Source: an uncultured Sphingomonadaceae bacterium
GTDB taxonomy: Bacteria; Pseudomonadota; Alphaproteobacteria; Sphingomonadales; Sphingomonadaceae
Assembly (NCBI GenBank): GCA_947488625.1
Contig: CANKZR010000004.1
Span: forward strand, 35,142 to 99,141
DNA length: 64,000 nt
Direction: 5' to 3'
Below, one piece after another: positions 42,212-64,000 of the stretch. Numbering within the stretch: position 1 is the first letter of the stretch; each line of letters begins with the position of its first letter. A program made the position numbers and the translations under genes. The notes under the pieces were generated by a model. It was not told the DNA's origin. It worked only from the letters and a program-made list of their open reading frames with translations, and made no database searches.

Positions 42212-42913
42212 ATGACAGCCCACAAGGACGGCGATCCCACCACGCTCAACCGGCTTTATGGCCGCTCCGTCGGCAAGCCTCTGCGCGCCCAGCAGCAGGA
42301 CCTTGTCGATAGCTTCCTGCCGAAGATATCCGTTCCAATCGAAGGACCGGTTACGGCAGAGCGCCTGTTCGGCGAAGATTGCCCGCTGCATTTCGAAATC
42401 GGTTTCGGCGGCGGCGAGCATCTTGCCTACCGGGCGGACCTGCTGCCCAACCACGGATTTATCGGTGCAGAGCCCTTCACCAACGGTGTGGCACAGGCGT
42501 TGACGCATGTGCGCGATGGGAAGCTGGCCAACGTACGTCTTCATGCCGGGGACGCGCTGGAAGTACTCGGCCGCGTGCCGGACGGCGCGCTGACCATGGC
42601 CTACCTGCTGCACCCCGACCCCTGGCCCAAGGCGCGCCATGCCAAGCGGCGCATGATGAACGACGGACCGGTGCAGATGATTGCCGACAAGCTCAAGCCC
42701 GGCGGCGAATTCCGCTTTGGCACCGATCACCCGGTCTACGTGCGCCATGCGCTGATGGTAATGCGCCGTTTCACCGATGTGTTCGAATGGGTGGCAGAGG
42801 GACCGGACGCCTTCCGAAATCGCCCCTCAGGCTGGTGCGAAACCCGTTACGAGAACAAGGCGCGCACCAAGATGGGGCACGAGGTCTGGTACTTTCGATT
42901 CAGACGACGCTAA
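42212..42913 (+). CDS. trmB: tRNA (guanine-N7)-methyltransferase
   Basis: EIGFGGGEH, IGAEPF, HPDPWPKARHAKRR and TRYE motifs. Confidence 0.95.
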   Translation: MTAHKDGDPTTLNRLYGRSVGKPLRAQQQDLVDSFLPKISVPIEGPVTAERLFGEDCPLHFEIGFGGGEHLAYRADLLPNHGFIGAEPFTNGVAQALTHVRDGKLANVRLHAGDALEVLGRVPDGALTMAYLLHPDPWPKARHAKRRMMNDGPVQMIADKLKPGGEFRFGTDHPVYVRHALMVMRRFTDVFEWVAEGPDAFRNRPSGWCETRYENKARTKMGHEVWYFRFRRR

Positions 42914-43040
42914 AGTACGAAATCATTGTAAAACAATGTACTTAGCAGATTCACCTTACGCTAGAATTGCCTCCATTTCGCCCCTTTTTCCGCTTGCGTG
43001 ATTGCCCGGTGATTGCCAGAAAAGGGACACGAGGTTTCGG

Positions 43041-44252
43041 ATGGCAACAGGAAAAATCACGAAAAAATCGATAGATGCGCTGGAGCCAAGCAGCTCGAGC
43101 CAGCTCCTTTGGGATACGGACCTCAAAGGATTCGGTGCGAAAATCACTCCAGCCGGCTCGATATCCTATGTGCTGCAGTTCCGAATGGGCGGCCGTGAAG
43201 CTCGAACAAGACGCTATACTATCGGGGCGCACGGGTCGCCGTGGACACCGACGACAGCGAGAGTGGAGGCGGAACGCCTTCAGTTACTAATTGCGCAAGG
43301 TATCGACCCTGTAGACGATGATAAGCAGAGGCGCCGCGAAGCCGTCGATCTCGCATTCGACAACTATGCGTCGCATTTCGCTCGGTCCTGCAAGGGTGTT
43401 GGCTGGGCGAGGCTCGTTGAACGCGTCATCCGGCTTTACCTTGAACCGGTTATCGGAAAAAAGCCGCTTCCCCGAGTTTCGAGGCCGGATATCGTAGCCG
43501 TCCTGGACAATATGCCCGAGCATCAGGTTGCCAATCGCCGGAATGTCTTTGCGGTGATGCGGCGCCTATTCCGATGGGCTGTCAGTCGTGGCGATATCGA
43601 GCGCAGTCCCATGGAGGGAATGGAGGCACCACCGCCGGTAAGGCCGCGGGATCGCTGGCTACAGGACGACGAGCTTCGACACATCTGGGAAGCAGCTCCC
43701 GATTGCTATCTTTGCTTTGGTCCAATTGTCCGCTTGCTCATTGCGACAGGGCAACGCCGCGAAGAGGTTTCAGGAATACATTGGCAAGAGGTTGATCGGA
43801 AAGACCGGTTTTGGACGCTGCCAGGTTCACGAACAAAGAATAATGAACCAAACGCGATCCCACTGAACGACCTTGCCGTTGCCGAACTCGATCGGCAGGC
43901 AGGCGGCGCGAACTGGCCGAAGAAAGGGCGCGTTTTTGCCACGTCAAGCGGGGCAGGTTTTACCGGCTACGCCAAGGGCAAGAAGAAACTGGACGGTCTC
44001 ATAGAGCAAAAGCTTGGTGAGCCATTGCAACCCTGGCGCCTGCACGATCTTCGGCGCACGCTTGCGACCAACTTCCAGCGCCTCGGCGTTCGCTTCGAGG
44101 TTACAGAGGCAGTTTTGAACCATGTCAGCGGCTCAAGAGCAGGCGTTGCAGGAATCTACCAGCGCCACGACTGGAAAGACGAGAAGAGAGAAGCGCTCGA
44201 TGATTGGAATGAGCATCTGGTCCAGATACTGAACGGCTCCGAACAGACTTGA
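43041..44252 (+). CDS. int: Tyrosine recombinase/integrase with N-terminal arm-binding (DUF4102-type) domain
   Basis: LLWDTDLKGFG...YTIGAHG arm domain; catalytic TGQRREE, TKN, HDLRRT, LNH and Y (GIYQRH). Confidence 0.95.
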   Translation: MATGKITKKSIDALEPSSSSQLLWDTDLKGFGAKITPAGSISYVLQFRMGGREARTRRYTIGAHGSPWTPTTARVEAERLQLLIAQGIDPVDDDKQRRREAVDLAFDNYASHFARSCKGVGWARLVERVIRLYLEPVIGKKPLPRVSRPDIVAVLDNMPEHQVANRRNVFAVMRRLFRWAVSRGDIERSPMEGMEAPPPVRPRDRWLQDDELRHIWEAAPDCYLCFGPIVRLLIATGQRREEVSGIHWQEVDRKDRFWTLPGSRTKNNEPNAIPLNDLAVAELDRQAGGANWPKKGRVFATSSGAGFTGYAKGKKKLDGLIEQKLGEPLQPWRLHDLRRTLATNFQRLGVRFEVTEAVLNHVSGSRAGVAGIYQRHDWKDEKREALDDWNEHLVQILNGSEQT

Positions 44253-44285
44253 AGCATACGCTTGAGGAGCCATGGCTTGCAAATC

Positions 44286-44891
44286 TCAGGTCGATCCCTG
44301 TTCCGCGAGCACTGCAATCAGCCGGGAGACGTTCGCGAGGCATTGGTCATGATATCGCCTTAGTGCCTGGACGCGCTTTGACGGAGTCGCCAAAGCACTG
44401 CCCTCCAGCTCCGCAAGCGCCTCCAGAGCGTTTGGCAGGACGTCAGGCTCCAGCCTTCTTACGATGTGCAATCGGTCGCTAATCAGGTCGACCGTCTGCC
44501 TTAGAAATCTGTTTTCCGAACCCAAGGCAAAAATCGAAAAAACATCGCCAACGCGGTCAGCGTAGGTGTCGATCGGTGCGGCTAGATCAGCCGTGTCGAT
44601 TTTCCGTGGTGCTGGATCGGCCACGCTTTCCAAGAGAAGAACATTTACTGCGAGCATGTCGCGCAACGAATGTTCGGTCAGGAGCGTGACCCGGTACCCC
44701 TCGCCAGGGGTCAGATCGACAAGACCTTCGCCGACAAGTTGATTGAGGCTGTCTCGCACAGGTGTCATGCTGACACCGAACTCGTCTGCCAATCGCATCG
44801 CTTCGAGTTTCTGGCCGATCGGCCAAGTACCCTCCATCAATGCCCTTTTCAGGCGGCGATAGGTCGGTTCCAGGACGTGTGCGGGGCTCAT
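44286..44891 (-). CDS. GntR-family transcriptional regulator
   Basis: LADEFGVSMTPVRDSL..L..EGLV wHTH; ATGA overlap with phyH. Confidence 0.88.
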   Translation of the reverse strand: MSPAHVLEPTYRRLKRALMEGTWPIGQKLEAMRLADEFGVSMTPVRDSLNQLVGEGLVDLTPGEGYRVTLLTEHSLRDMLAVNVLLLESVADPAPRKIDTADLAAPIDTYADRVGDVFSIFALGSENRFLRQTVDLISDRLHIVRRLEPDVLPNALEALAELEGSALATPSKRVQALRRYHDQCLANVSRLIAVLAEQGST

Positions 44892-45754
44892 CTCTTGGAG
44901 CGACGAGCTTCCGCAAATTCATGGACAGCTGCAAGCTGCTCGGGCCGAAGCGCATCGGTAGCCTGCGGATAATTGGCTACCTCTTCACCGAGCAGAATGG
45001 ATGGACACTGACCTTCGTAGTTCCCAAGATTCGGTCGGTGCTGCGCATAACCTGCCAATTCAGCAAGTTCGGGCGGAAAATTTCGCGCGACCTCTGGCGG
45101 ATATGCCAGCCAAAGGTTCTCGTACGGCTTGAGCCAGCCGAGGCTGTAGCCGATCACAACGCCGCGTCGGACGTCTTCGGTCGAGTTTGGTCCAGCACCG
45201 TGCACGGTCGAACCAAGAAAGCAGATCGCATCACCTGGCTTGCTTGCCGCAACAATCGGATCACCAAGTTGATCGAGGCTCTCGACAGGACGTTTATGTG
45301 TCCCGGGATAGATGCGGGTCGCGCCGTTGGATGAGTTGAAGTCGGTGAGCGGCCAAATGACATTGAGCAGATATTCGTGTTCACCCTTGGCACCGGCCCA
45401 CATGTCGTGATCACAATGCGGGAACTGTTCGATCTCGCCGGGATGAATGGCGATTGCCTGGGCAACGTTAAGCTGAATTCGGTCGCAAGCCTTACCGAGG
45501 ACTTCGCGGGCCAGCGAAAGGATGAGAGGCTGCAGAACAAGGTCACAGGCCCAGCGTGAGCGGCGCAACAAACTACCGAAACGCTTCGTGCGAAACCCGT
45601 AGAAATCGCCGTGACCCATAGGGGTTTCGGTAAAATCCCGTTCAAGATCTGCATCGAGCGCCGCGATGCTGCTCTGAGGAAGGAGGTCCGGAATGATGCA
45701 ATAGCCATCCTTCTGTAGCCGTTCGAGCCAATCGATTGATTTGATATCGCTCAT
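44888..45754 (-). CDS. phyH: Phytanoyl-CoA dioxygenase-family Fe(II)/2-oxoglutarate oxygenase
   Basis: HxD (PHCDHDMW), NGATRIYPGTH and distal His (STVHGAG); ATGA overlap with luxI. Confidence 0.85.
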   Translation of the reverse strand: MSDIKSIDWLERLQKDGYCIIPDLLPQSSIAALDADLERDFTETPMGHGDFYGFRTKRFGSLLRRSRWACDLVLQPLILSLAREVLGKACDRIQLNVAQAIAIHPGEIEQFPHCDHDMWAGAKGEHEYLLNVIWPLTDFNSSNGATRIYPGTHKRPVESLDQLGDPIVAASKPGDAICFLGSTVHGAGPNSTEDVRRGVVIGYSLGWLKPYENLWLAYPPEVARNFPPELAELAGYAQHRPNLGNYEGQCPSILLGEEVANYPQATDALRPEQLAAVHEFAEARRSKR

Positions 45755-46377
45755 GACACCACCTCCGATGCCGCCTCGGCGACCCGGTAGACACCTTTTC
45801 GATAGATACCGCCGCGAGCGAGATCGTCCGGCGTGTCGCAATCTATATCGATCTGCAGTGCGACAAGGTCCTCACCGTCAATCCTGCAGCCGCCGCCAAG
45901 TGTGCGACATTGCCAGCCGAAGCTTTCGATTTGGCGGAACCAAACTCTATTGGCCACAGCGGTGTAGCCCGACAGTCCGGTCTTTAGGGCATGCTCGGCA
46001 AGCGCGGTCACAAGTTGGTCGCGTGCCGTGCGGCGCTCAAACCGCGAGAGCGTGGGTTCGATGCAGAAACGCGTGATCTCGCGAAAATCGGACCGAGAGG
46101 GTATCGGACCATCACACAGACAAGGGAATAGCTCCCCGAGAATGTGAGCGCCGTCAGTCCGCAAAAGGCGCGCTGAAGCGCGATGACGGCCTTCTCCGTC
46201 GGTCAGCACCAAATAGCTCGCATCGGGCGTATCGAACTGGTCGATCTCGTATGCATCATCCAAAACGGGAACATCCCATTTGAGAAGATCGACGAATACC
46301 CGCTTGCGCGCCTCGAACATTACGCGAAGTGCTGGATCCGAAGGGCAAGCTTGGAGAGAAACTGGGGAGTGTTGCAT
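45751..46377 (-). CDS. luxI: Acyl-homoserine lactone synthase (LuxI family)
   Basis: RKRVFVDLLKW, EIDQFD, ARLL and EITRFC conserved LuxI residues; start 46377 (AGGT RBS) or 46416. Confidence 0.93.
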   Translation of the reverse strand: MQHSPVSLQACPSDPALRVMFEARKRVFVDLLKWDVPVLDDAYEIDQFDTPDASYLVLTDGEGRHRASARLLRTDGAHILGELFPCLCDGPIPSRSDFREITRFCIEPTLSRFERRTARDQLVTALAEHALKTGLSGYTAVANRVWFRQIESFGWQCRTLGGGCRIDGEDLVALQIDIDCDTPDDLARGGIYRKGVYRVAEAASEVVS

Positions 46378-46578
46378 GGCGGCTACCTGGCGATTTGAAG
46401 ACAGGTCGCCATTCACCAGATCGGGGCGATCGCAGACATACCAAGAACTGGGGATGCTGCGACTTTGGGGTGCTCATAATCGTGTCATCGGACGCAGTCG
46501 CACCGGCGAGCTCGCTCTGTTCTGTTCCTCTCTTCAAATCTTAATCAGCCAATTTACGGGCCTTGGCGACGTGAAACC

Positions 46579-47004
46579 TCAATTGGGCACAACGACCTTA
46601 TGCCCGTAAAGCGCGTCGATGATGGGGCACTCGGGAACGTCGCCGCCGTCGCACTGAGCCGAGACATCGGCAAGCGTTCGCTCGAGCTTCTTCAGGTCAA
46701 TAATTTTCTGCCGAACGCTCGCTAGATGGCCGTCAGTCAACTCTAAAACCTCACCACAGCTGTAGTCGTGAGAATCGACGAGAGTGAGCAGACTCATGAG
46801 CTCTCCGATCGAGAAGCCGAGATCACGGCCACGCAGGATGAAACCAAGCCGCGCTTGGTCATCGCGCGAATAGAGCCTGTGCCCGCTGGCCGTGCGCTCG
46901 GGCGGCTTCAGCAGACCGATCTTTTCATAATAGCGAATGGTCTCAAGGTTGCAGCCTGACCGATTGGCCAGTTCGCCTCGCTTGATCATTTTTGATGTCG
47001 TCAT
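46579..47004 (-). CDS. merR: MerR-family Hg(II)-type regulator
   Basis: ETIRYYEKIGLL HTH; three cysteines at positions equivalent to MerR C82/C117/C126 (YSCG, AQCD, PECP); start may be 46989. Confidence 0.88.
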   Translation of the reverse strand: MTTSKMIKRGELANRSGCNLETIRYYEKIGLLKPPERTASGHRLYSRDDQARLGFILRGRDLGFSIGELMSLLTLVDSHDYSCGEVLELTDGHLASVRQKIIDLKKLERTLADVSAQCDGGDVPECPIIDALYGHKVVVPN

Positions 47005-47025
47005 ATGCCGCGTGCCAATTTGTGC

Positions 47026-47056
47026 TTGAACCTGTAGTGACTACAGAGATTATATT
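47026..47056 (+). promoter_or_regulatory. MerR-type promoter/operator with 19-bp spacer
   Basis: -35 TTGAAC (47026-31), 19 bp containing the palindrome CTGTAG-TGA-CTACAG, -10 TATATT (47051-56). Confidence 0.88.
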
Positions 47057-47063
47057 GAACTCC

Positions 47064-47426
47064 ATGGCCGATCAAACGCAAAAGACCTCCCAGAGATTGT
47101 TGGCGAGCGGTGGCGCATTAAGTGCGGTTTTTGCAGCCTCCTGCTGCATTGCTCCGCTGCTCCTGTTGAGCCTCGGCGTCAGTGGCGCGTGGATCGGCAA
47201 TCTGACCGCGCTCGAACCCTATAAGTGGATCTTTATTGCCGTAGCGGTCGCTTGTCTGGGCCTTGGATTTTGGCATGTTCATTCCCGAAAAGTCGAGACT
47301 TGTGAGGACAGTACATATTGCGCGCGTGCTGAAGCGGGCCCGATCCTAAAAAGCGCCCTGTGGCTGGCAACCGCCTTGGTTGCTGCCTCGGCCACGGTCG
47401 ATTGGTGGGCGCCGCATTTTTATTAG
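47064..47426 (+). CDS. merT: MerT-like mercury transporter
   Basis: ASCCIAP TM cysteine pair, ALEPYKW, second Cys pair CEDSTYC; ATG about 8 nt after the -10 suggests a leaderless mRNA. Confidence 0.88.
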   Translation: MADQTQKTSQRLLASGGALSAVFAASCCIAPLLLLSLGVSGAWIGNLTALEPYKWIFIAVAVACLGLGFWHVHSRKVETCEDSTYCARAEAGPILKSALWLATALVAASATVDWWAPHFY

Positions 47427-47437
47427 GAGTTAGACGG

Positions 47438-47785
47438 ATGAAAAAAACAATGATTGCCGTTGCTGCCGGATTGGCCATCGCCGGAGCAGGCATTGGGGCA
47501 GCGACGCTCATGCCGCAGTCCTCGAACGAGAAAACCGCTCAAAGTGCTGAAACGCTGCAAACGGCAAGCTTCGCGGTTGAAAATATGACCTGCGCGACCT
47601 GTCCGATCACGGTGCGGCGCGCAATGGAAGGCGTTGCAGGTGTGCATGATGTGACAATCGATTACGAAGCCAAGACTGCTACAGCGCATTTCGATCCTGC
47701 CAAAACCACCATGCGCGACATCGCCACTGCTTCGACCGAGGCAGGCTATCCTGCCCAAACACAATTTAGCGGGACCGACCTCTGA
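47438..47785 (+). CDS. merP: MerP-like periplasmic heavy-metal-binding protein
   Basis: Signal sequence; HMA motif NMTCATCP; C-terminal AGYP. Confidence 0.85.
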   Translation: MKKTMIAVAAGLAIAGAGIGAATLMPQSSNEKTAQSAETLQTASFAVENMTCATCPITVRRAMEGVAGVHDVTIDYEAKTATAHFDPAKTTMRDIATASTEAGYPAQTQFSGTDL

Positions 47786-48003
47786 TGCAATTACAATCCA
47801 CGCTCACGTGCCCTCAGTGCGGACACCAGGAAATCGAAACCATGCCGACCGACGCATGCTGGTTTTTCTACGACTGCAAGGGCTGCGGAATGAAGCTGAA
47901 ACCCAATGCAGGCGACTGCTGTGTCTTCTGTTCGTTCGGCACAGTGCCTTGCCCGCCAATTCAAGAAGCGCGTGCCAATGGCACAAGCGTTGAATGCTGC
48001 TGA
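47785..48003 (+). CDS. Small Cys-rich GDCCVxC-domain protein
   Basis: CPQC, CWFFYDCKGC, GDCCVFCSFGTVPCPP and terminal CC; translationally coupled to merP. Confidence 0.85.
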   Translation: MQLQSTLTCPQCGHQEIETMPTDACWFFYDCKGCGMKLKPNAGDCCVFCSFGTVPCPPIQEARANGTSVECC

Positions 48004-48013
48004 GGTCAATGAC

Positions 48014-49372
48014 ATGAACGAACGCAGCTTCGATCTTATCGTACTCGGCGTCGGAATGGCGGCGGTGAATGCCGCGAACAAATGCGCCGCTGCGGGTTGG
48101 TCGGTCGCAGTGGTTGACGAACTTCCCTATGGCGGCACCTGCGCGCTGCGCGGCTGCGACCCCAAAAAGATGCTGCGGCGAGGCGCCGAAATCATCGATG
48201 GAGCTCGGCTGATGCAGGGCAAGGGTATTGAACCGAATGATATCGCGATCAACTGGGCTGATCTCATCGCCTTCGCTCAGAGCTTTACCGACAGAATGCC
48301 CGAGAAGATCGAGGGCGGTCTCGACAGTAACGGCGTCACCACGCTTCACGGGACGGCGCAATTTGCTGGCGAAGACACGATCGAAATCGAGGGCCAAGGG
48401 CGGTTTCAAGCCAACAATATCCTGATCGCGACTGGCGCCAAGCCCCGCCCTGTGGATATTCCAGGTGCCGAACACCTCACCAACAGCACCGAATTCATGC
48501 GGATGGACGCCCTCCCGAAGCGTATATTGTTTATCGGCGGCGGGTTCGTCTCGTTCGAGTTCGGTCATATCGCTGCACGAGCTGGCAGCGAGGTGCAGAT
48601 CATTAATCGCGGTGACAGGCCATTGAAGGCCTTTGACACAAACCTCGTCGAAAAGCTTTTACCACGAGGTGAGGAAATTGGGGTGGGATTGCGTCGGCGC
48701 ACATCGCTGAAATCTATCGCCACTGACGGCGTCGAATTCATCGTCACTGTCGAAAAGAATGGTGAAACCGAAGACTTGCACGCCGATCTGGTCGTGCACG
48801 GTGCGGGACGCGTGCCTGAAATCGATCGCCTGAACCTGAGCGCTGCCAATATCGAGGCGGGAGACAAGGGAATAGCAGTCAATGAATATTTGCAGAGCCT
48901 GTCCAACCCGAAAATCTACGCCGCAGGCGATGCGGCCAACACGCACGGGCCTCCGTTGACACCTGTCGCAGTATTCGAAGGCAAGGTCGCTGCCTCCAAC
49001 ATGCTCAAGGGCAATCAGACCAAGCCAGACTATCGCGGCGTGCCCAGCGCTGTGTTTACAATTCCGGAATTAACCCGCGTCGGAATGCTCGAAGAAGAAG
49101 CAGAGGAAGCCGGTCACAATATCCGCGTCGCGGAAAACGACACAGGCAATTGGTATTCCAATCTTCGCGTTGGCGAGACCTGTGCTGCCACCAGAATTAT
49201 CATCGATAAAGACACCGACACTATCCTCGGCGCGCATCTGTTTGGACCCGAATACGGGGAGATTATCAATTTCTTCGGCCTTGCAATGAGGCTGTCACTG
49301 ACAACTCGAGATCTGAAGAAATTGGTCGCGGCCTACCCCTCGGTTGGCTCGGATTTAGGGTCCATGCTGTAA
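48014..49372 (+). CDS. Class I pyridine nucleotide-disulfide oxidoreductase, not a canonical MerA
   Basis: Redox motif GGTCALRGCDPKK and GGGFVSFE; no NmerA domain and no C-terminal vicinal Cys pair (ends YPSVGSDLGSML). Confidence 0.85.
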   Translation: MNERSFDLIVLGVGMAAVNAANKCAAAGWSVAVVDELPYGGTCALRGCDPKKMLRRGAEIIDGARLMQGKGIEPNDIAINWADLIAFAQSFTDRMPEKIEGGLDSNGVTTLHGTAQFAGEDTIEIEGQGRFQANNILIATGAKPRPVDIPGAEHLTNSTEFMRMDALPKRILFIGGGFVSFEFGHIAARAGSEVQIINRGDRPLKAFDTNLVEKLLPRGEEIGVGLRRRTSLKSIATDGVEFIVTVEKNGETEDLHADLVVHGAGRVPEIDRLNLSAANIEAGDKGIAVNEYLQSLSNPKIYAAGDAANTHGPPLTPVAVFEGKVAASNMLKGNQTKPDYRGVPSAVFTIPELTRVGMLEEEAEEAGHNIRVAENDTGNWYSNLRVGETCAATRIIIDKDTDTILGAHLFGPEYGEIINFFGLAMRLSLTTRDLKKLVAAYPSVGSDLGSML

Positions 49373-51174: not shown

Positions 51175-51355
51175 ATTCTAGGCCCCATGACCGAGCTATT
51201 CGCCGCGCGGCGGATGGTTTCTTGTCGCCGGTATCGCGCGAATGAAGTCTGGCATATTGATCCTTGTACGCCGGATTGCGTCGCAGGAATTCCTGCGCGA
51301 AGTCCGAAAAATCGAAGTCGCCTGTACCAGTATCGTCGGCAGATGATTGAGCCAT
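51047..51355 (-). CDS. DUF6499 domain (Msi172-like), zero frame of an FseA-like fusion
   Basis: Strong RBS AAGGAGG; FAQEFLRRNPAY..QY motif followed by SWGLEFP. Confidence 0.75.
   Translation of the reverse strand: MAQSSADDTGTGDFDFSDFAQEFLRRNPAYKDQYARLHSRDTGDKKPSAARRIARSWGLEFPVRSECFGHRQPGDLEKRCERKRRYRGWRRPGPCRNQRHIG
51170..51190 (-). other. Putative +1 programmed ribosomal frameshift site
   Basis: TCA.TGG.GGC.CTA.GAA.TTT.CCC matches TGG.GGV.NTN.NNN.TTT.CSY; UUU-to-UUC slippage lands in the DUF2285 frame. Confidence 0.8.
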
Positions 51356-56963: not shown

Positions 56964-58673
56964 CCGGGCCCAGTTCTCGGCCTCGGCTAGATCGAGAAGC
57001 CGGTAGATGGTCGATCCATCAAGCGACGTGTCGAGTTCAAATGCGGCTTCGACACTTGCGCGGTCGAGCAATCCATTCCGTGCGATCAGGCCATCGAGCA
57101 ACAATTCGCGAAGGGCGCTTCGATGGTGGTGGAACGCGAGGCGGATGAAGCTGTCTGGTCCTGATTTGGAGGTGCGTGCCAACAGGCTCTGCGGAAGGTC
57201 AGCGGCAAAAGCATCGCGCGCGAGCGCACGGTTGCGACCGCCTTCGACCCACAGCCATGTGGGGATACCCAGGCACAATTCGAGCAGAGGCTGGCTCATG
57301 AGTGGTGAGAAGCGTTCAGGCCCGACGCCAAGCCCGTGAACATGGTGCTGGGCGCGCATGATCAGGGCAAGATGATCGTGTTTACCTCCATGCTGGCCGA
57401 CATCGATATCGAGCCAGGGTGTTACGGGGTCCAACGCCTCGTCCAATGCGAGATGATCGGCAAGCAGGCGCCGGTCGCAAGGCCATTCGCCGCCTGGGCG
57501 GCGCACCAAACGCTTTAAGGTCGCCTTGACCATGGCAGGTAAATCGCAGCCGGTAACCCGGCACATGTCGAGCAGGGTTGCGACCGCACCGCGTCCGGGT
57601 CCCTCGACACGCAAGCGGTCGACGACCGGCGCCGCTGAATGAAGAAAGCAGAACAGATTGTCGCCAGCATTGCCATCGAAGACGATCCGCGCTCCGAGGT
57701 CACCTGCGGCATCGGCGAGCAACGCGTCGATGGTAGACAGAAACGAACTGCGGCTCGGGCGCGGAAGACCGACCGAGGCGCTGACCCGGGGATCGAAACG
57801 CATAGGATCGTAAATCCGCTCGGCATATTCTGCACCCAGGTGCTTAGCCAGAAGGCGAGCATAGTCCCGCTCGTCGCCGCTTCTGTCCGCTGTCGCGAGC
57901 GTGACGCAGGAAATCGGTTCTTGCGCCCGCGTAAGCGCGGCGCAGACGAGGGAAGAGTCGACGCCGCCCGACACCGCCACTGCCACGGGTCCAAGCTCGT
58001 CGGCCCATGCGCCCATGACACGGATCGCCACTTTGCGAAGTTGCGATCTCGCTTCACCATAGGAGGGCGATTGTCTGCCCGGCAGGAACTGCTGCGCGCG
58101 CCAGACTGGGAATTCTTCGGGATCGCAAGCCGCCGGATAAGTCAAGGCACCTGGCCGTAGCTCGTGGACACCGGTCAGACAGGTTTGTCTCCTGCGCAAT
58201 TCGGCACGCGTCAAAAAACTGCCCAGAGAACCCCATGATATACTCATTCTCTTTGCGCAGGCCTGCTCGAGAAGTTTCGGATCAGAGGTGAGCAGCACGT
58301 GGGTCGTCGTCACCAGTCGGTAGATCGGGACCAGTCCGGAAGGATCCGGCATCACGGCCAAATCGCAGCGATCACGATCGGGTATGATCGCCAGGTAGGC
58401 ACCCCAGAAGTTTGCGGCGAGGTCGGCGGCGAGCGTTTCAGCGGAGTGCGTGCCCATCTCCGGCAGCTGATAAACACGCTGCGACGTGGCTCCGGCGAAG
58501 AGGGTGCCGATCACACATCCAGCAGAGCCAAGATCGGCAACATTCGTGCCTTTCGCTATCCAGAGCCGCGGGAGATCGCCGCACAGATCCTGCAGGCTCG
58601 GCATCATCTGCAGCCGAGGAGACGCCCCCGATTTCCGGCGCGGTACAGCGAGAGCAAAGCGCTGTGGCGTCAT
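56952..58673 (-). CDS. Lasso peptide cyclase (C protein, asparagine synthetase-like)
   Basis: VSGGVDSS ATP-pyrophosphatase loop, FDGNAGDNLF, SPLMSQPLLELCL.IP, R.LAR.AF...LP; ATG 58673 overlaps the B stop. Confidence 0.9.
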   Translation of the reverse strand: MTPQRFALAVPRRKSGASPRLQMMPSLQDLCGDLPRLWIAKGTNVADLGSAGCVIGTLFAGATSQRVYQLPEMGTHSAETLAADLAANFWGAYLAIIPDRDRCDLAVMPDPSGLVPIYRLVTTTHVLLTSDPKLLEQACAKRMSISWGSLGSFLTRAELRRRQTCLTGVHELRPGALTYPAACDPEEFPVWRAQQFLPGRQSPSYGEARSQLRKVAIRVMGAWADELGPVAVAVSGGVDSSLVCAALTRAQEPISCVTLATADRSGDERDYARLLAKHLGAEYAERIYDPMRFDPRVSASVGLPRPSRSSFLSTIDALLADAAGDLGARIVFDGNAGDNLFCFLHSAAPVVDRLRVEGPGRGAVATLLDMCRVTGCDLPAMVKATLKRLVRRPGGEWPCDRRLLADHLALDEALDPVTPWLDIDVGQHGGKHDHLALIMRAQHHVHGLGVGPERFSPLMSQPLLELCLGIPTWLWVEGGRNRALARDAFAADLPQSLLARTSKSGPDSFIRLAFHHHRSALRELLLDGLIARNGLLDRASVEAAFELDTSLDGSTIYRLLDLAEAENWARSWH

Positions 58674-59275
58674 ACGACCAATATCGGCGTATACCGCAGC
58701 ACTTCCTCGGCAGTATCGTTGAGCACGGCATCGCCTTGCTGGACCCAGCAATGGGCGCCGAACGGATCGCTTCGGACGCCGATAACGATATGGGTGTGGA
58801 TATCGCGCCGGGCTAGCCGCAGCGCTAGCGCAATCGAGCGCGGCAAGCAGCGATCTGCTGCACTGCGCAGGAGCCGGGCGTGTTCAAAGGCGCGAAGCTC
58901 CATAGCCCGCTCGGTGCCACTTGTATCACTGGTCACCAGCGGGCCTTTCAGGCTTTTCAGCTCCAGCAGGACTTCGCGGAAAGAACGCGCTGCAATTCGG
59001 CGCTCGACTCGGCGCTGGGTCCAGATTGCCGCAGAAACGCGGGCAAGCCGAAAGGGCCCTTCATGGATCTCCGGCGAAACAATACGCGGTCTGGTCCATT
59101 CAGGTGGGCGCGGGAAAGCGGTTGGTTGATACCAGTCTTGGCCCTCAACCTGGGCGCGAAAAGCCTCCTCGCGAGGCGCTGGCAGCTGAAAGTAGCGATC
59201 TTGCGCAATGTCGAGAAAAACGAACCTGCCGCTGCATTCGGCCCAGGCGATATCGCTGTTGCTGAACTCGGTCAC
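58670..59275 (-). CDS. Lasso peptide B protein (leader peptidase, transglutaminase-like)
   Basis: FVFLDIAQDRY N-terminus; catalytic RCLPRS, FGAHCWV and LND. Confidence 0.9.
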   Translation of the reverse strand: MTEFSNSDIAWAECSGRFVFLDIAQDRYFQLPAPREEAFRAQVEGQDWYQPTAFPRPPEWTRPRIVSPEIHEGPFRLARVSAAIWTQRRVERRIAARSFREVLLELKSLKGPLVTSDTSGTERAMELRAFEHARLLRSAADRCLPRSIALALRLARRDIHTHIVIGVRSDPFGAHCWVQQGDAVLNDTAEEVLRYTPILVV

Positions 59276-59295
59276 GGCGGTAGGATCGCAGCGAA

Positions 59296-59323
59296 GGGGC
59301 GCGGCCCTGCAAGGGCGCGCCCC
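59296..59323 (-). terminator. GC-rich hairpin between lasso precursor and B gene
   Basis: GGGGCGC-G-GCCCT-GCA-AGGGC-GCGCCCC; no U-tract. Confidence 0.6.
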
Positions 59324-59334
59324 CCCCGCGAGGC

Positions 59335-59472
59335 TCAGTCTTCGGCGAGGCCGGTCGCGTAGGACAACCGGCCGCTGCTCACATCGATATCGAACAGGGC
59401 GTTGCCCTTGGTCTCCACCGAGGCTTGGCCGAGATCGATAACCTCATCCTGGATATGCTCAAAATCCTTCAT
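59335..59472 (-). CDS. Lasso peptide precursor (45 aa): leader MKDFEHIQDEVIDLGQASVETK + core GNALFDIDVSSGRLSYATGLAED
   Basis: Hand-translated (below the ORF-track cutoff); RBS AGGAG; IDLG.AS.ET.G leader motif with Thr at -2, Gly1 and Asp8. Confidence 0.93.
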   Translation of the reverse strand: MKDFEHIQDEVIDLGQASVETKGNALFDIDVSSGRLSYATGLAED

Positions 59473-59545
59473 GATTCACTCCTGTGGTTGGTATCGCGAC
59501 TCAATTGTCGCGAGAAGAGAGTGATCGCGTGAGGAAATTCAGGCC

Positions 59546-59568
59546 AACTTATAATGAAATTATAAATT
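59546..59568. promoter_or_regulatory. AT-rich inverted repeat upstream of the lasso precursor
   Basis: AACTTATAAT-GAA-ATTATAAATT (9/10 arm match) 74 bp upstream of the ATG. Confidence 0.55.
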
Positions 59569-59801
59569 CCGCTTGGGTGGAAGATGCGACCGGGAGATGG
59601 AAACACCCGTTGGCGAGTGTATCGATACTTTTAGCGTTTCGCCTGGACATCTGTATCGGCGCCCGGTCGCCAGGAACTTGCATTCCCGCACCAGTATTAC
59701 GCTGAAACACGACTGGTGCAAAGGGACCGTAAAGTTACGTAGGCCAGCAATTCACGCGAAACGATAGATGTTTAGCGTGACAAAGCCGGGTACTCGATCC
59801 T

Positions 59802-60038
59802 CTACTGGTCTGGTTTGGCGGCGGCTCGCCTGCGCAATCGCGCGAAGTCCCTGTCGCTCGCAATGAACCGCTCCAGCATTGGCGAGACGAGAAGAGCGGG
59901 ATCCGGAGCGTTCTCCGGTGTCCCGCCATTTATCACGCGGGCATATTCGGCCAGCTTGCGATGCAGCCGGACCGGTATCTCGACGGTCAGCTTGACTGTT
60001 TTTTGATCCTCGATGTCGGATAGCTTCAGGCGGGTCAT
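59802..60038 (-). CDS. DUF2274 domain protein (last gene of trb operons)
   Basis: LKL..IED.K.VKLTVE....L...L..YA...PMLERFIASDRDF; ATGA overlap with trbI. Confidence 0.85.
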   Translation of the reverse strand: MTRLKLSDIEDQKTVKLTVEIPVRLHRKLAEYARVINGGTPENAPDPALLVSPMLERFIASDRDFARLRRRAAAKPDQ

Positions 60039-61210
60039 GAGCGGCTGTCCAGGATAATATCGCGCGTTACCAGAACGCGCACCGGGTAACCGGGGCGGAT
60101 CGTCAATGTCGGACGGATGGCAAGCTCGCGAGAGACAACCTGCTCGCCCACCTGGTTGACGCTGTCCTGACCTCCCCGGCGCACGGCACGCAGCAAATCG
60201 CTGTCGCCTCCCGGACCAAGCTCGCCGCCGATACCTAGTAGAGTCGAGACCAGCGCTGCCTTGAACACACCGCCCCAATGATAGTCGACGCCGTCTTCCA
60301 GTCCGGCATAGCCTGCCGGATCGACCGCAGGCTGGCGCTCGAGAACCAGCGAGCGCCCGTCGGGCAGGATCAGGCGATTCCATGCCAGCAGCACGCGGCG
60401 CTCGCCGAAGCCGACATCGGACGCATAATCGCCGATAAGGCGCGCGCCCTGGGGAATAAGCAGAATCCGCCCGGTGAGGCTGTCATAGACATTCTGCGTG
60501 ACTTGCGCGGTCACAAGGCCGGGCTGGTCTGACCGGACGCCGGTGATAAGCGCCGCAGGAATGACCGAGCCTGCCTGAAGCACTGCATCCGTCGGCGCCG
60601 CGGCGAGCTGCTGCAATGCAGCGGTGCGCCGATCGGCCGGGCGGTCGAGGAAAGCGGGCGCAGATCTCACGGCCTCGGTCGCGGTCACAGGCTGCGATGC
60701 GTTCGAACTGGCTGTTGGCGGTGCATCGGTGCTTGAAACCGCCGTAGCGCCCGCAAAGAACAGCGCGCTGGCACGGGCCGCTTCGCGCTCCTGCTCGATG
60801 CGCTGACGCGCTGCCTCTGCGGGACTTATTCCCTGCGTCTGCGGCGGCGCGGGCTGCGATCCGACTGGTGGAAGCGCAGCGACAGCTCCGCGATCCTGGG
60901 CATTGAGGATGGGCTCGCCGAGATCGCCGGGAAGCGACGGGCCGAGACGCGGAACCTGCGAATAGTCGCTCGGGCCCGACGCAAGACCGTCGGCGACCGC
61001 CACTGTTTCGGTTCCAAAAAGCTCATCCGGCCCTGCCTCCGAGACCGGTTGCAGGGCGTAAATCATCGCGCCGCCGACCAGCGTCAGAGCGGCGGCGCTG
61101 GCGATGCCGATGGCTTTGCGCGAGAGGCGAACGACGCGCGGCCCCTCACCGCGCAAGCGAACGATGGATTCAGCATCAGCAGGCCGGTCCGGTTCGGATT
61201 CACTGTTCAT
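60035..61210 (-). CDS. trbI: Conjugal transfer protein TrbI (VirB10)
   Basis: LQAGSVIPAALITG, IPQGARLIG, GYAGLEDGVDYHW and PTLTIRPG motifs. Confidence 0.95.
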   Translation of the reverse strand: MNSESEPDRPADAESIVRLRGEGPRVVRLSRKAIGIASAAALTLVGGAMIYALQPVSEAGPDELFGTETVAVADGLASGPSDYSQVPRLGPSLPGDLGEPILNAQDRGAVAALPPVGSQPAPPQTQGISPAEAARQRIEQEREAARASALFFAGATAVSSTDAPPTASSNASQPVTATEAVRSAPAFLDRPADRRTAALQQLAAAPTDAVLQAGSVIPAALITGVRSDQPGLVTAQVTQNVYDSLTGRILLIPQGARLIGDYASDVGFGERRVLLAWNRLILPDGRSLVLERQPAVDPAGYAGLEDGVDYHWGGVFKAALVSTLLGIGGELGPGGDSDLLRAVRRGGQDSVNQVGEQVVSRELAIRPTLTIRPGYPVRVLVTRDIILDSRS

Positions 61211-62205
61211 GACCGGCCCCACGCCCGATTGGTGATTTTGACCCGAACCTGCCTGCGCCTGGCACCAAGCCGCAGTTCGGCCTTCTCGAACAGGCGGTCC
61301 ACAATCAGATAGCGGCCCGAAACGCGGTAGTTGACCAGCTCCGCCTGCCCATCCTCGCCGACGACGAAAAACGGCGGCATTTCACCTTGCGCAATATCGG
61401 GCGGAAATTCGATCAGGGTGCGCTGCCCGTCATCGAATATCCGCACCGGCCGCCAGTCGGGCCTATCGCCCGAAATCCGGTAGTCGAAGTTGAGATTCTC
61501 GACCGCGAAACCGCTTGCAACGGGCGCGGCGCGCGCTGCGTCCTCTTCGGCCCGGCGAAGAGCGATCAGTTCATCTGCCGGATAGCTCCAGCTGACCGAC
61601 GCCATATAGACACTGGGATTGGCCCGCAGTTCGACATGATAGGTTCGCCGATCGGTGTTGATCACGAGATTGGTCGTAATATCGGGCCGGGTGGGTTTCA
61701 CGAGGATGTGGACGCGCGCCGCCTCGCCCGTCCCGCTCATCGTATCGCCGATCATCCAGCGCACCGTATCGCCAGCGGCAACCGGTCCGGGACCGACGAG
61801 CTTTTCGCCCTCCTGCAATGCGATATCGGTGACCTGGCCCGGCTTGGTATAGACCTGAAACAGAGCGCCCTCGCTATAGGGATAGCGCTGGATCGCATTG
61901 TCGAATCCGACGTCGTCGGGCTCGACCCGTGCGGCATCGTTTGCCGCTCCCACTTGGCTCTGGGGATCAGGGGCAGGTCCAGAGCCAGGGGAGCGGCGCG
62001 CGGCAGTGGGGGAGGCCTGCCGCGAACTGAAAAGGAGAGAAATACCGATGTTGTCTTGCAGGACCGGGAAAGCCCCTGCGAGCGCGCCCAATGCTTCGAT
62101 TGACGCCGCCGCCTGCGGGGCAGGTGTCGCAGCGACAGGCGCGGCAAGAGCGAGCGAGACAAGGCCGAAAAAGCCGATCGTGGGAAGTGCATGCGAGCGG
62201 GACAT
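61207..62205 (-). CDS. trbG: Conjugal transfer protein TrbG (VirB9)
   Basis: VAAGDTVRW, TNLVINTDRRTYH, MASVSW.YP and LVNYRV motifs. Confidence 0.93.
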   Translation of the reverse strand: MSRSHALPTIGFFGLVSLALAAPVAATPAPQAAASIEALGALAGAFPVLQDNIGISLLFSSRQASPTAARRSPGSGPAPDPQSQVGAANDAARVEPDDVGFDNAIQRYPYSEGALFQVYTKPGQVTDIALQEGEKLVGPGPVAAGDTVRWMIGDTMSGTGEAARVHILVKPTRPDITTNLVINTDRRTYHVELRANPSVYMASVSWSYPADELIALRRAEEDAARAAPVASGFAVENLNFDYRISGDRPDWRPVRIFDDGQRTLIEFPPDIAQGEMPPFFVVGEDGQAELVNYRVSGRYLIVDRLFEKAELRLGARRRQVRVKITNRAWGRS

Positions 62206-62885
62206 CAGCCGAGCTCCTTTGACCAGTTGATGGAAGTGACGAAAATTCCGAGCGGGTTTCTGCGAAGCGCATCCGCGTTGGTTGGTGGCTGGACGGCGAT
62301 GCCCAAAATCGCGGTCCAGCGGCTCGTCTCGGCAAGCGAGCCGTCACGGTAGCGGCGCTCGATCCAGGCCACGCGGAAGCTCCTCGGCGAGGCGCGGATG
62401 ACGCTTGTGACATCGACCGCAACCTGTTCGCGGCCGATCGCGGCGAACGGATCGCTGCGCCGAGCATAGTCGTTGAGCGCCAGCGCGCCTTTGTCGCTGG
62501 CAAAGTCATAGGCTGACAGCCAATTCTCGCGCACCACGACCGGATCGTCAGGAATGGCGCGCACGTTTTCGATAAACCGGGCAAGATGGAACGCGATCTG
62601 GGGATCGCTTGGGTCGAATGCGACATTGGCAGGCGCAACGCTGCGCGCTTCGCCGAGCTTGTTCACCTCGACCACCCAGGGAACGATGGTTCCCCGCGCA
62701 TTCTGCCAGACGAGACTGCCAGTCAGGATTCCCGATAATCCAAGCGCACCGAAAAACGCATAGCGCCAGCTTCTCGCCTGAATGCGCGCCGAACCGATGC
62801 GATCGTCCCAGACCTGGGCCGCGCGCTGGTAAGGTGTCTCGGCTTGCGGTGTCTTACCGTATCGGATCGAAGGGCGTTTAAACAT
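62205..62885 (-). CDS. trbF: Conjugal transfer protein TrbF
   Basis: ETPYQRAAQVWDDRIGSAR, DPVVVRENW and RNPLGIFV..INWS motifs. Confidence 0.95.
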   Translation of the reverse strand: MFKRPSIRYGKTPQAETPYQRAAQVWDDRIGSARIQARSWRYAFFGALGLSGILTGSLVWQNARGTIVPWVVEVNKLGEARSVAPANVAFDPSDPQIAFHLARFIENVRAIPDDPVVVRENWLSAYDFASDKGALALNDYARRSDPFAAIGREQVAVDVTSVIRASPRSFRVAWIERRYRDGSLAETSRWTAILGIAVQPPTNADALRRNPLGIFVTSINWSKELG

Positions 62886-62891
62886 GAGGCG

Positions 62892-64000
62892 TCAGTCCTT
62901 TTCCTGAGTGTCGATGGAAGCGCCTGCGCCGTGCCCGTCGCCAGAGCGAACGGTGTGCGCGGCAAGCGACGCTGAATGTCCAAGAGACTGTCGCTGCTTC
63001 ATGGATTTCGCCCAGCTCGGCGGGCCGTTTTCGGACGCTGGCGAAGACGGCGGCGAGGAGGCGACCCGGCCACCCATATTGCTGGCTGCTGCACGCGCAC
63101 CTTCGCGAAAATTTCGTTTGGCGCTATCCGCCGCCTTACGCAGAGGTGAGAGGGCAGCACCGCCTGCGGCGCGTCCGACACTCGCCATGCCGCCTGCAAC
63201 CGCACCGCCGCCGCTCTTGCCTGCCGAACCTGTTGCGTAGGCCATGGTGGCACCTCCAGCAGCGCGCGATGCGCCACTGGCGACCGAGGATGCTGCGCTG
63301 GCTACAGCGCCGCCCGCAAGCTTGGCACCGGCAATGCCGCCGACGGCTGCCCCGCCGGCCAGCACAGCGGTGCCTGCCGCGGCCCCTGCGCCGAGCTGGG
63401 GGCCGCCTGCGACGATGCCGTTGGCGATACCGGGACCGAATATGCCGAGCCCGAGCAGGGTAAGACTGGCGAGCACGATCGCCAGCGCGTCTTCGATGGT
63501 CGGGTCGCCCGGGATGGCGCTGGTAAACTCAGCGAAAAGCGTCGAGCCGATCCCGATAATCACGGCGAGCACGAGTACTTTGATCCCTGAGGAGACGACA
63601 TTGCCCAGCACGCGCTCGGCCATGAAAGCGGTCTTGCCGAACAGGCCGAAAGGGATGAGCACGAAGCCTGCAAGCGTCGTCAGCTTGAATTCGATGAGCG
63701 TCACGAAGAGCTGGATCGACAGAATGAAGAAGGCGATGACCACCAAGGCCCAGGCCACCAGCAGGATGATGATCTGCAGAAAGTTCTCGAAGAAGCTTAT
63801 ATAGCCGAGCAGATCGGCCATCGACGCAAGCAAAGGCGCGGCAGCATCGATACCGACCTGCGCGACCCGGCCCGGCTGCAGCAGATCGGCTGCGCCAACG
63901 CCAGAACCGCTGGCCTTGAGGCCAAGTCCGGCAAAGCTTTGAAATATGATATTGGCCAGCGCGCTCCAATTGCCGATGATATAGGCGAAGATTCCGACGA
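62892..64000 (-). CDS. trbL: Conjugal transfer protein TrbL (VirB6), 5' part beyond the window
   Basis: IQLFVTLIEFKLTTLAGFVL.PF...KT.F.AERVLG, GPGIANG..GGPQLGAG and an A/G-rich tail; frame open to the window edge. Confidence 0.93.
   Translation of the reverse strand, partial: VGIFAYIIGNWSALANIIFQSFAGLGLKASGSGVGAADLLQPGRVAQVGIDAAAPLLASMADLLGYISFFENFLQIIILLVAWALVVIAFFILSIQLFVTLIEFKLTTLAGFVLIPFGLFGKTAFMAERVLGNVVSSGIKVLVLAVIIGIGSTLFAEFTSAIPGDPTIEDALAIVLASLTLLGLGIFGPGIANGIVAGGPQLGAGAAAGTAVLAGGAAVGGIAGAKLAGGAVASAASSVASGASRAAGGATMAYATGSAGKSGGGAVAGGMASVGRAAGGAALSPLRKAADSAKRNFREGARAAASNMGGRVASSPPSSPASENGPPSWAKSMKQRQSLGHSASLAAHTVRSGDGHGAGASIDTQEKD

Follow-up and report, generated by a model that had tools for sequence, protein, structure and literature searches.

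Lasso peptide gene clusters that encode an isopeptidase have an "almost constant" architecture, GntR-A-B-C//isoP-TBDR-sigma/anti-sigma, in which A, B, and C are the precursor, the leader protease, and the lasso cyclase, isoP is the isopeptidase, and TBDR is a TonB-dependent receptor (2022 review, PMC9266682). GntR is the canonical regulator of these clusters, and their architecture is siderophore-like and of enigmatic function (PMC9266682). Subterisin is present in the culture supernatant even though its cluster has no exporter (PMC11006600). Here we analyze a cluster of this kind in a 64,000-nt stretch of DNA from an uncultured Sphingomonadaceae bacterium (contig CANKZR010000004.1). We refer to the whole stretch as the window and use its coordinates throughout; L001, L002, and so on are the loci that we compared it with. 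The cluster lies within an ICE (integrative conjugative element), and our comparisons indicate that a quorum-sensing group (luxR-luxI-phyH-gntR), the frameshift-controlled activator gene fseA, and the lasso unit are one inherited composite block that is ancestral to this family of ICEs. To our knowledge, what isopeptidase-associated lasso peptides do has been an open question since 2013, and this locus would be the first genomic handle on their purpose.

ICEMlSymR7A from Mesorhizobium has a control pathway that runs from TraR/TraI to FseA to RdfS. Like it, the element in the window has a LuxR/LuxI pair, an FseA with a +1 frameshift, a tyrosine integrase, and a P-type trb operon that ends in trbI-DUF2274. 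Unlike ICEMlSymR7A, the window has fseA, luxR, luxI, phyH, and gntR in the same direction next to the integrase gene (int), with the lasso unit between fseA and trb, and the element is at trmB, not at a tRNA gene. The nearest relative that we found without lasso genes (FseA 35% identical) has the classical fseA-rdfS-traF layout. In the Sphingomonadaceae, phyH comes after luxI, and in some cases the pair has virB/trb genes as neighbors (Gan et al. 2015, PMC4288048), and the luxR-luxI-phyH topologies in that study mention no gntR, lasso genes, TonB receptor, or FseA. We found no description in the literature that ties isopeptidase-type lasso clusters to ICEs, conjugation genes, FseA, or genes for N-acyl-homoserine lactone (AHL) signaling, but our coverage was incomplete and an earlier account is possible.

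The gene map comes from a listing of open reading frames (ORFs) and from Pfam and NCBIfam scans of the window. A first-pass annotation, made from the letters of the sequence alone, had placed a complete lasso set between DUF2274 and an FseA-like activator, and every gene that it named is where it said, according to Pfam, NCBIfam, and the ORFs. On the minus strand, the precursor gene lasA (59335-59472) matches the NCBIfam model lasso_benenodin (45.2 bits, against a cutoff of 33) and encodes MKDFEHIQDEVIDLGQASVETK/GNALFDIDVSSGRLSYATGLAED (leader/core), with Thr at -2, Gly1, and Asp8 around the junction SVETK/GNALFDID. Across 32 distinct homologous precursors, Asp8 is invariant, and the leader ...(V/I)DLGxASxETK and Gly1 are shared; most of them end in Asp or Glu, and the rest differs. 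The relatives' precursors match Pfam Subterisin, and the window's precursor is a member of the benenodin/subterisin family. Its predicted product is a Gly1-Asp8 lasso of 23 residues. Next to it are lasB, for the leader protease (58670-59275, minus strand; PF13471 or Transglut_core3, E = 1.5e-19; NF033537, 73 bits against a cutoff of 33), and lasC, for the lasso cyclase (56952-58673, minus strand; Pfam Asn_synthase, PF00733, E = 2.3e-25), which overlap in ATGA. These features of the precursor, with B and C next to it, are those of an isopeptidase-type lasso cluster.

The isopeptidase gene (54813-56963, plus strand) converges on lasC. Its product matches NF033523 (764 bits, against a cutoff of 400) and AtxE2 (PDB 5TXC, E = 4.6e-125), and its Ser543, Glu626, and His654 align with the Ser, Glu, and His of AtxE2 in 5TXC (which we take to be Ser527, Glu610, and His638) and are invariant in 16 homologues. 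By homology, it can be assigned unambiguously to the AtxE2 family. The receptor gene (52453-54816, plus strand; Pfam Plug and barrel) overlaps the isopeptidase gene by 4 nt and is preceded by a gene for a FecI-like extracytoplasmic function (ECF) sigma factor (51748-52329, plus strand; Pfam Sigma70_r2 and r4_2). The window therefore resembles the astexin (AtxE2), benenodin, subterisin, sphingonodin, and sphingopyxin clusters, with a Thr -2/Gly1/Asp8 precursor, a fused B, an Asn-synthetase-like C, a convergent AtxE2-family isopeptidase with a Ser-Glu-His triad and a TonB-dependent receptor beside it, as well as a FecI-like sigma factor but no ABC exporter.

Judging by their domains, all of these components belong to known families, but two features of the canonical cluster are missing: the sigma/anti-sigma pair and the GntR gene before the precursor. 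Beside the isopeptidase, the window has a receptor and an ECF sigma factor only. There is no FecR anti-sigma gene at the locus (the 124-bp gap between the sigma and receptor genes is too small for one), and Pfam finds no STN signaling domain in the receptor. Receptors from FecR-type clusters are 844-861 amino acids long and have the STN domain, versus 784-790 amino acids and no STN domain for the ICE type; both FecR and STN are present in L017, L019, L021, and L022 and are absent from the window and the other ICE-type loci. The ICE-type unit has lost the anti-sigma factor and the receptor's signaling domain and has kept an orphan ECF sigma factor back to back with fseA. This sigma factor is 35-64% identical to those of FecR-type lasso clusters, and its matches to NCBIfam ECF models are all under the equivalog cutoffs. 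As for the regulator, gntR is 14.4 kb from lasA, behind luxI-phyH, and trbI-DUF2274 precedes lasA instead, while in canonical loci gntR is 300-500 bp from lasA. The window also departs from canonical clusters in having a sigma gene that diverges from fseA, an attached luxR-luxI-phyH group, and an ICE around the unit.

The pyoverdine (FpvA/FpvR/PvdS) and FecA/FecR/FecI systems likewise combine a dedicated TonB-dependent receptor with an ECF sigma factor, and their molecule and receptor types covary. Canonical lasso clusters carry the full STN-FecR-sigma chain, as in FecA/FecR/FecI. Unlike the pyoverdine and Fec loci, the window has neither STN nor FecR, we found no link to iron or other metals, and the molecule would be destroyed by the isopeptidase instead of being recycled. 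Because STN and FecR are missing and the sigma factor alone is present, a surface-signaling loop of the FecA-FecR-FecI type cannot run.

On the other side of the sigma gene, fseA (50560-51355, minus strand) lies in two overlapping frames (Pfam Trans_reg_dom and RovC_DNA-bd). Reading the frames, we find that the two halves are joined by a +1 frameshift at TGGGGCCTAGAATTTCCCG (51161-51187), giving WGLEFP/FDP, where the slash marks the shift; a +1 shift at UGGGGCCUAGAAUUUCCCG yields ...SWGLEFP/FDPSV.... The protein consists of DUF6499 (FAQEFLRRN, with the EFLRRN motif) and DUF2285. FseA was described as DUF6499 with EFLRRN plus DUF2285, with a +1 frameshift next to WGL (PMC10359603), and the window's fseA matches this description in its motif, its WGL-adjacent shift, and its DUF2285. 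The frameshift site UGGGGNCUNGAAUUUCCN is kept in 17 sequence variants among the relatives.

Downstream of fseA is luxR (49527-50279, minus strand; Pfam Autoind_bind and GerE), for an AHL receptor of the LuxR/TraR type. Conservation within the block is highest for luxR, with identities of 63-98% across ICE-type loci. The AHL synthase gene luxI (45751-46416; Pfam Autoind_synth), the dioxygenase gene phyH (44888-45841; Pfam PhyH), and the regulator gene gntR (44286-44891; Pfam GntR) overlap and are co-directional (44286-46416, minus strand). These domains point to a LuxR/LuxI pair on the element. The order luxR-luxI-phyH-gntR-integrase had been given in the first-pass annotation and is present, although a merR-merT-merP-merA operon between luxI and luxR had been overlooked. 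Between 42.9 and 64 kb there is no lone short DUF2285 ORF that resembles QseM, and neither QseM nor QseC was identified there.

We then asked how constant this arrangement is, using FseA homologues of falling identity for which the lasA side of the locus is readable. The order lasA-B-C//isoP-TBDR-sigma//fseA-luxR is found in all of them, namely L002 (FseA 99% identical), L003 (98%), L004 (67%), L007 (50%), L006 (49%), L010 (48%), and L110 (42%). TrbI-DUF2274 precedes the lasso unit in six of these seven relatives; L003 is trb-less. L001 (a 7.7-kb contig, FseA 100% identical) has the identical order as far as the contig reaches. For the relatives with FseA identities of 42-67%, the full order is TrbI-DUF2274-lasA-B-C//isopeptidase-receptor-sigma//fseA-luxR-luxI-phyH-gntR-(cargo)-int, and trmB adjoins the element wherever the flank is visible. 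An FseA homologue at 77% sits at the end of its contig, with the luxR side alone readable. Lasso loci with isopeptidases that are 57-61% identical have a matching layout, and one of these isopeptidases is identical in 961 collection blocks from several species. (A scan of contigs gave three close loci, and the deeper FseA relatives came from protein look-ups.)

The lasso genes are missing from outgroups only. An outgroup with a 35% identical FseA has fseA-rdfS-like-DUF2840-traF-SLT-relaxase-traG, with neither lasso nor quorum-sensing genes. Outgroup plasmids whose TrbI is ~52% identical have unrelated cargo after DUF2274: LysR, IS21, and BREX in one, and a toxin-antitoxin system, a type I restriction-modification system, and a retron in another. 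The first-pass annotation had proposed a survey of this kind and had named, as part of what would refute its idea, homologous backbones that usually lack the lasso genes or have unrelated cargo in their place. Such backbones are confined to the outgroups, and all readable relatives with FseA identities of 42-100% carry the lasso genes at the same site. The lasso set is a fixed and swappable part of an ICE family in marine sphingomonads, where it is always joined to the quorum-sensing and FseA genes.

We also surveyed these clusters from the isopeptidase side, choosing homologues solely by similarity of the isopeptidase, from two look-ups, 19 plasmid records (10 of which were inspected), and the best 80 of 490 metagenome loci. 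Loci were mapped by tblastn and form 67 lineages at 90% identity; the window's clade has isopeptidases that are at least 50% identical to the window's. Across 52 evaluable lineages, lasA is followed by DUF2274/TrbI in 16, by gntR in 21, and by another gene in 15. Of the 47 lineages that can be evaluated for it, 29 have luxI-phyH within 10 kb, and an FseA-type DUF2285 gene is present in 24 of 50. The corresponding fractions for the window's clade are 13/24 for DUF2274-trbI, 18/22 for luxI-phyH, and 19/25 for FseA. FecR is found in 21 of 51 evaluable lineages, with 2/26 in the window's clade versus 19/25 in the more distant clade. Unlike the topologies of Gan et al., luxI-phyH-gntR is here linked to an isopeptidase-type lasso unit (in those 29 of 47 lineages).

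The first-pass annotation had allowed that the lasso genes could be passive cargo. If so, the unit would have landed once in a hotspot behind trbI-DUF2274 and would have no functional tie to the element. The distant trb elements with unrelated cargo after DUF2274 fit with this, as do the mercury resistance genes, which show that the region accepts cargo, and the lasso clusters of this type that are found away from ICEs. However, relatives whose FseA is as little as 42% identical retain both the site and the gene content, while their other cargo varies, and the linkage to quorum-sensing genes and DUF2285 survives three rearrangements (see below). The composition of the lasso genes (GC at third codon positions of 0.65-0.71) is also near that of the trb genes (0.70-0.72). 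Because of the fixed site and the clade counts, we consider passive cargo to be very unlikely.

The same gene content occurs in three orders, of which the window's is the first. The second is fseA-luxR-luxI-phyH-gntR-sigma-receptor-isopeptidase, all co-directional (for example, L047 and L053); plasmid Lpl of PP1Y has this order with FecR and without FseA. The third, canonical order is sigma-FecR-receptor-isopeptidase//lasC-B-A-gntR-phyH-luxI-luxR//DUF2285 (for example, L021 and L082). All three arrangements keep luxR, luxI, phyH, and gntR in this succession. Because the composite is kept together across three gene orders, the quorum-sensing genes and gntR are, in evolutionary terms, no less a part of the lasso unit than of the ICE. 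This turns round the view of the first-pass annotation, which was that a lasso module sits inside the control core of an ICE: the association is fixed, but it is better described as one quorum-sensing/FseA/lasso block that is carried by conjugative elements.

The composite block also appears on sphingomonad plasmids and as chromosomal islands without trb. Plasmid p2 of Novosphingobium ES2-1 has the quorum-sensing and lasso block with neither FseA nor trb. The canonical version is on plasmids including pCHQ1 of Sphingobium UT26. Asticcacaulis and several sphingomonad plasmid clusters have the published GntR-A-B-C//isoP-TBDR-FecR-sigma form only, and several such sphingomonad plasmid clusters have F-type tra genes a few kb away. 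In eight close relatives (L003, L027-L030, L033, L044, and L061), homology to the window ends at 59670, just past the lasA control region. All eight still have int, fseA, mer, the quorum-sensing genes, and the lasso unit but no trb operon, and they look like decayed ICEs that kept the block. In L029, the only one of the eight that we inspected, chromosomal genes are next (thioredoxin-TPR, Lon N-domain, MarC, and FolD). We also considered that the trb-less relatives might be tandem islands, but no att repeat was found and deletion remnants fit better. The block adjoins mreB and flagellar genes in L053 and L079. As a separate observation, a nucleotidyltransferase-HEPN gene recurs beside the lasso/quorum-sensing block in L017, L018, L019, L023, L024, L026, L048, and L056; these neighbors occur on plasmids and in trb-less islands.

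Part of the lasso unit is exchangeable. The window and L038 share 92-100% DNA identity over 49.4-52.7 kb, a span between luxR and the first 250 bp of the receptor gene. From ~59.6 kb, just upstream of lasA, to trbL they share 91-97%, with a transition bin of 84% at 59.3 kb. Between these regions (52650-59400, which includes the receptor's plug and barrel, the isopeptidase, lasC, lasB, and the lasA core), identity is 63-78% or the sequences are not alignable. At the protein level, the backbones are 95% identical and the cassettes are 60% identical. The breakpoints are ~200-250 bp into the receptor gene and in the lasA leader, and the counterpart of the cassette in L038 is at 5.9-10.3 kb. The nearest match to L038's cassette is that of L004 (86%), while the backbones of L038 and L004 are 79% identical. 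Both L038 and L004 have a leader of the window's type and the core GAVGFYIDASGGQLVNSPGLLDE. This comparison indicates that the receptor barrel, the isopeptidase, C, B, and the core peptide were exchanged as one cassette between near-identical backbones. Over 210 pairs of loci, backbone and cassette divergence are correlated (r = 0.81), so inheritance is mostly joint and replacement in place is occasional. Passive cargo would not be expected to show this correlation, or to be replaced in situ instead of being lost. As a side observation, lasC in its 5' part and lasB in its 3' part (57900-58800) are just 85-89% identical in DNA to L002, L003, and L029, whose receptor and integrase genes are 98-100% identical to the window's, so there is a local excess of divergence in the maturation genes.

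The joint exchange of a peptide, its receptor, and the enzyme that destroys it is reminiscent of bacteriocin-immunity cassettes. Competition and addiction modules are common on mobile elements, and the peptide might harm cells without the element, with the receptor and isopeptidase providing immunity by import and destruction; this would favor carriers and new transconjugants. The lack of an exporter-type immunity gene would be in keeping with this explanation. However, immunity would call for the reverse of a dedicated importer on the producer, and we know of no antimicrobial activity reported for any characterized isopeptidase-type lasso peptide, so we consider a competition module to be highly improbable.

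Upstream of lasA is a structured RNA motif of 85-89 nt (59584-59672, minus strand, in the lasA sense and 112 nt upstream of the lasA ATG). It has three helices with 25 pairs, 14 of which have compensatory changes among 23 distinct sequences. The cells of the alignment are paired 95.1% of the time, versus 85.2% in shuffles (0 of 500 reach the observed value) and 32-37% in slid controls. A covariance model built from the motif (R1) gives the window's copy 92.7 bits, and Rfam has no match at E <= 1 over 42.8-64 kb. With this model, we found the motif before lasA in the clade that lacks FecR and in PP1Y; in canonical clusters of the FecR type, among them pCHQ1, it precedes the sigma gene by ~100-130 nt (other instances are at L019 16831-16922 and L021 7431-7520). 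It is before fseA or luxR in L016 (6529-6616), L055, and L079, and R1 finds none in the outgroups that lack lasso genes. The motif is a previously undescribed, shared cis element that accompanies isopeptidase-type lasso clusters.

Downstream of the RNA motif, the lasA leader region contains two conserved palindromes, TTATAAT-TTC-ATTATAA (59549-59565, minus strand) and TCGCGAC-AATTGA-GTCGCGA (59494-59513, minus strand). Across 12 diverged loci, both show little or no variation, and they could serve as an operator, a -10 element, or hairpins. Another palindrome, GGGAAT-N4-GTTCC, lies just upstream of the motif (59673-59687). Our scans of the DUF2274-lasA intergenic region found no intrinsic terminator and no sigma-70 consensus. 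In four RNA runs, which are assembled contigs and by their sequence are from the trb-less variant, lasA and the 5' part of lasB are covered far more deeply than lasC (for example, 150 versus 3-9). We conclude that lasA is expressed from its own control region and that the unit is kept after the conjugation genes have gone.

The divergent fseA and sigma genes are separated by a conserved non-coding block of 235 nt (51509-51745), which we aligned across 13 diverged loci. It is conserved above the flanking coding sequence, contains CTGGCG-N19-CGCCAG (51572-51602), and is probably a control region that the two genes share. RNAalifold predicts 44 pairs with a covariation term of -0.2, which is negligible covariation. 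The block might instead have been a small ORF, but the start codon is lost in L016 and L055. Scans for sigma-70 promoters and terminators in this region and in the one before lasA gave nothing useful.

The constant position of fseA relates to the first-pass annotation's proposal, which was that the lasso peptide is a second, element-type-specific signal into the control of the ICE. Carriers would secrete the peptide, neighbors with a matching receptor would import it, and its presence or cleavage would tune FseA-dependent excision and transfer. Small peptides do gate conjugative elements in Firmicutes (RapI-PhrI of ICEBs1, cCF10/iCF10 of pCF10, and Rap-Phr of pLS20). By analogy, the window's system may share with them a small peptide with its own uptake component, polymorphic specific alleles, and linkage to an activator. 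Unlike them, its peptide is predicted to be a threaded lasso, import is over the outer membrane only, there is a degrading enzyme, and there is no known cytoplasmic receptor; the region contains no Rap-like or other peptide-binding regulator. In favor of a signal, the unit is back to back with fseA, across a conserved shared intergenic block, in every class-I ICE-type locus, and trbI-DUF2274 lead into lasA-B-C without an intervening terminator. Three loci have the RNA motif in front of fseA or luxR, which points the same way, and that FecR and STN were lost suggests that the unit was rewired to regulators of the element itself. Polymorphic cassettes on backbones that are nearly identical are also a typical trait of pherotype systems.

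Nevertheless, no transducer joins a periplasmic peptide to a cytoplasmic LuxR or FseA, and STN with FecR, the sole recognizable signal transducer, is what the ICE-type unit has lost. The region encodes neither an inner-membrane permease nor an exporter. The block is without FseA or trb on plasmid p2 of ES2-1, it persists in islands that have no type IV secretion system, lasA is transcribed in trb-less variants, and canonical clusters with these same enzymes are not on ICEs. We therefore think that a second signal into ICE control, with import by matching neighbors tuning excision and transfer, is possible but doubtful. It is rather unlikely that each cassette type acts as a pherotype that marks one element type, with uptake and opening by the isopeptidase tuning fseA and lasA and thereby excision and transfer. 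The input for such a pherotype could be sensed by the 85-nt leader RNA, by the orphan ECF sigma factor, or by both. If this were true, there would be a layer of peptide self-recognition atop AHL sensing, and isopeptidase-type lasso peptides would have their first assigned function.

The explanation that fits best, to which we give a probability of roughly 0.55, is that the peptide is a quorum-controlled, type-specific ("private") shared molecule, possibly a siderophore-like carrier or a recognition signal. On this reading, the lasso unit is a core accessory function that is co-regulated with the ICE, and not a dedicated switch for excision or transfer. At high cell density, LuxR with AHL, possibly via FseA, GntR, and the orphan sigma factor, would turn on lasA-B-C and sigma-receptor-isopeptidase, with lasA-B-C under its own control region that includes the 85-nt structured leader RNA. 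The lasso peptide would get into the medium by some route. Uptake would be limited to cells with a matching receptor, and the isopeptidase would then open the peptide. The element would carry the peptide genes because carriers of the same element type benefit. We prefer a shared molecule because it would account for the link to quorum sensing and mobile elements, the combination of an importer with an opening enzyme, the cassette types, and the retention of the block without trb.

Several points weigh against a shared molecule. We infer control by LuxR, FseA, GntR, or the sigma factor from linkage only, and when we scanned palindromes for candidate lux boxes or FseA boxes, we found no motif in common. 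That the unit always adjoins fseA, and that the RNA motif lies before fseA or luxR in L016, L055, and L079, hints at a tighter coupling to ICE control than a shared molecule would require. Pfam found no gene for an inner-membrane importer or permease in the region. Nor did it find an exporter gene, so the statement in the first-pass annotation that the gene set "exports" a stable peptide is unsupported. We know of no ligand, cargo, or metal binding for this family of lasso peptides. Finally, the metagenome loci are those most like the window, so ICE-type loci are over-represented among them, and the loci were annotated by tblastn from a limited set of queries.

Mutant phenotypes have been reported for both quorum sensing and a lasso cluster in related bacteria. 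Quorum-sensing mutants of Croceicoccus naphthovorans lose phenanthrene degradation and have altered cell-surface hydrophobicity (PMC7432010), and a lasso (spgB) mutant of Sphingomonas BPH loses phenanthrene degradation and has altered biosurfactant production (PMC11006600). The lasso clusters of sphingomonads are systematically tied to AHL quorum sensing, FseA-type activators, and conjugative elements, and these ICEs have a conserved function other than transfer wired next to their master activator. The predictions are that quorum sensing or FseA controls lasA, that uptake is type-specific, and that excision and transfer either are or are not affected. Among the cultured carriers are Porphyrobacter sp. 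YT40 (CP041222), Qipengyuania sp. SM2507, Novosphingobium sp. PP1Y, and the strains behind CP011344 and CP065229.

The window from 42.9 to 64 kb is the integrase end of the ICE, which is inserted at the 3' end of trmB. The quorum-sensing, fseA, and lasso genes lie in its integrase-proximal 17 kb. trmB (42089-42913, plus strand) is chromosomal, as are the genes upstream of it (rpoN and others), and int (43002-44252, plus strand; Pfam Arm-DNA-bind_3, Phage_int_M, and Phage_integrase) encodes a tyrosine integrase. The left junction (42800-43001) comprises the 3' end of trmB and the trmB-int spacer, and DNA identity to L002 and L003 rises sharply at ~42.8 kb, from 70-80% to 91-100%. The integrase gene is next to trmB, at the same end of the element, in L002, L003, L004, and L110. 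Scanning genome contigs with FseA gave three near-identical copies, in metagenome-assembled genomes labelled Erythrobacteraceae, Sphingopyxis, and Erythrobacter. In the latter two, the element's genes are 98-99% identical to the window's while the adjoining trmB is merely 70-78% identical, a pattern that points to horizontal movement of the element. Because a tRNA search found no tRNA gene in the window, this is not a tRNA-integrating ICE. We found no att direct repeat between the trmB junction and the breakpoint at 59670, and none can be defined because the right end of the element is beyond the window. A near-identity DNA search of the PLSDB plasmids with the region gave short trb and merT matches only. 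We also noticed a 34-bp AT-rich palindrome-like stretch after the trmB stop codon.

At the other end of the window is the distal part of a P-type trb operon (59802-64000, minus strand). It consists of DUF2274 (59802-60038; Pfam), trbI, trbG, trbF, and trbL (Pfam TrbI, CagX, VirB8, and TrbL), with trbL cut by the window's end at 64000. In relatives, the operon goes on into TrbK, TrbJ, and TrbE. An ICE in Sphingopyxis granuli that is described in a preprint is a different element, and lasso genes, FseA, and a TonB receptor are unmentioned there.

The mer operon (merR-merT-merP-merA, 46579-49372, mixed strands; Pfam MerR, MerT, HMA, and Pyr_redox_2) splits the luxI-luxR pair by 3.1 kb and is a recent cargo insertion. 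It is absent from between luxI and luxR in L004, L016, L006, and L110, and the gap is filled by other cargo in L005 and L011. Because nitrate assimilation or ars/mer genes follow luxR, in this same gap, in some relatives, the luxI-luxR gap is a hotspot for cargo. Others have a second receptor and mer between gntR and int, and Porphyrobacter YT40 has no such cargo.

Relatives also carry an RdfS-like HTH_17 gene, DUF2840, TraF, SLT, and a DUF3363 relaxase (L014). L014 is a copy of a widespread P0054-type element in which (at 12134-22000) a truncated lasC is joined to a RES/Xre pair and to the relaxase-SLT-TraF-DUF2840-RepA-HTH_17 part of the ICE; an internal deletion took out lasB, lasA, and the trb genes.

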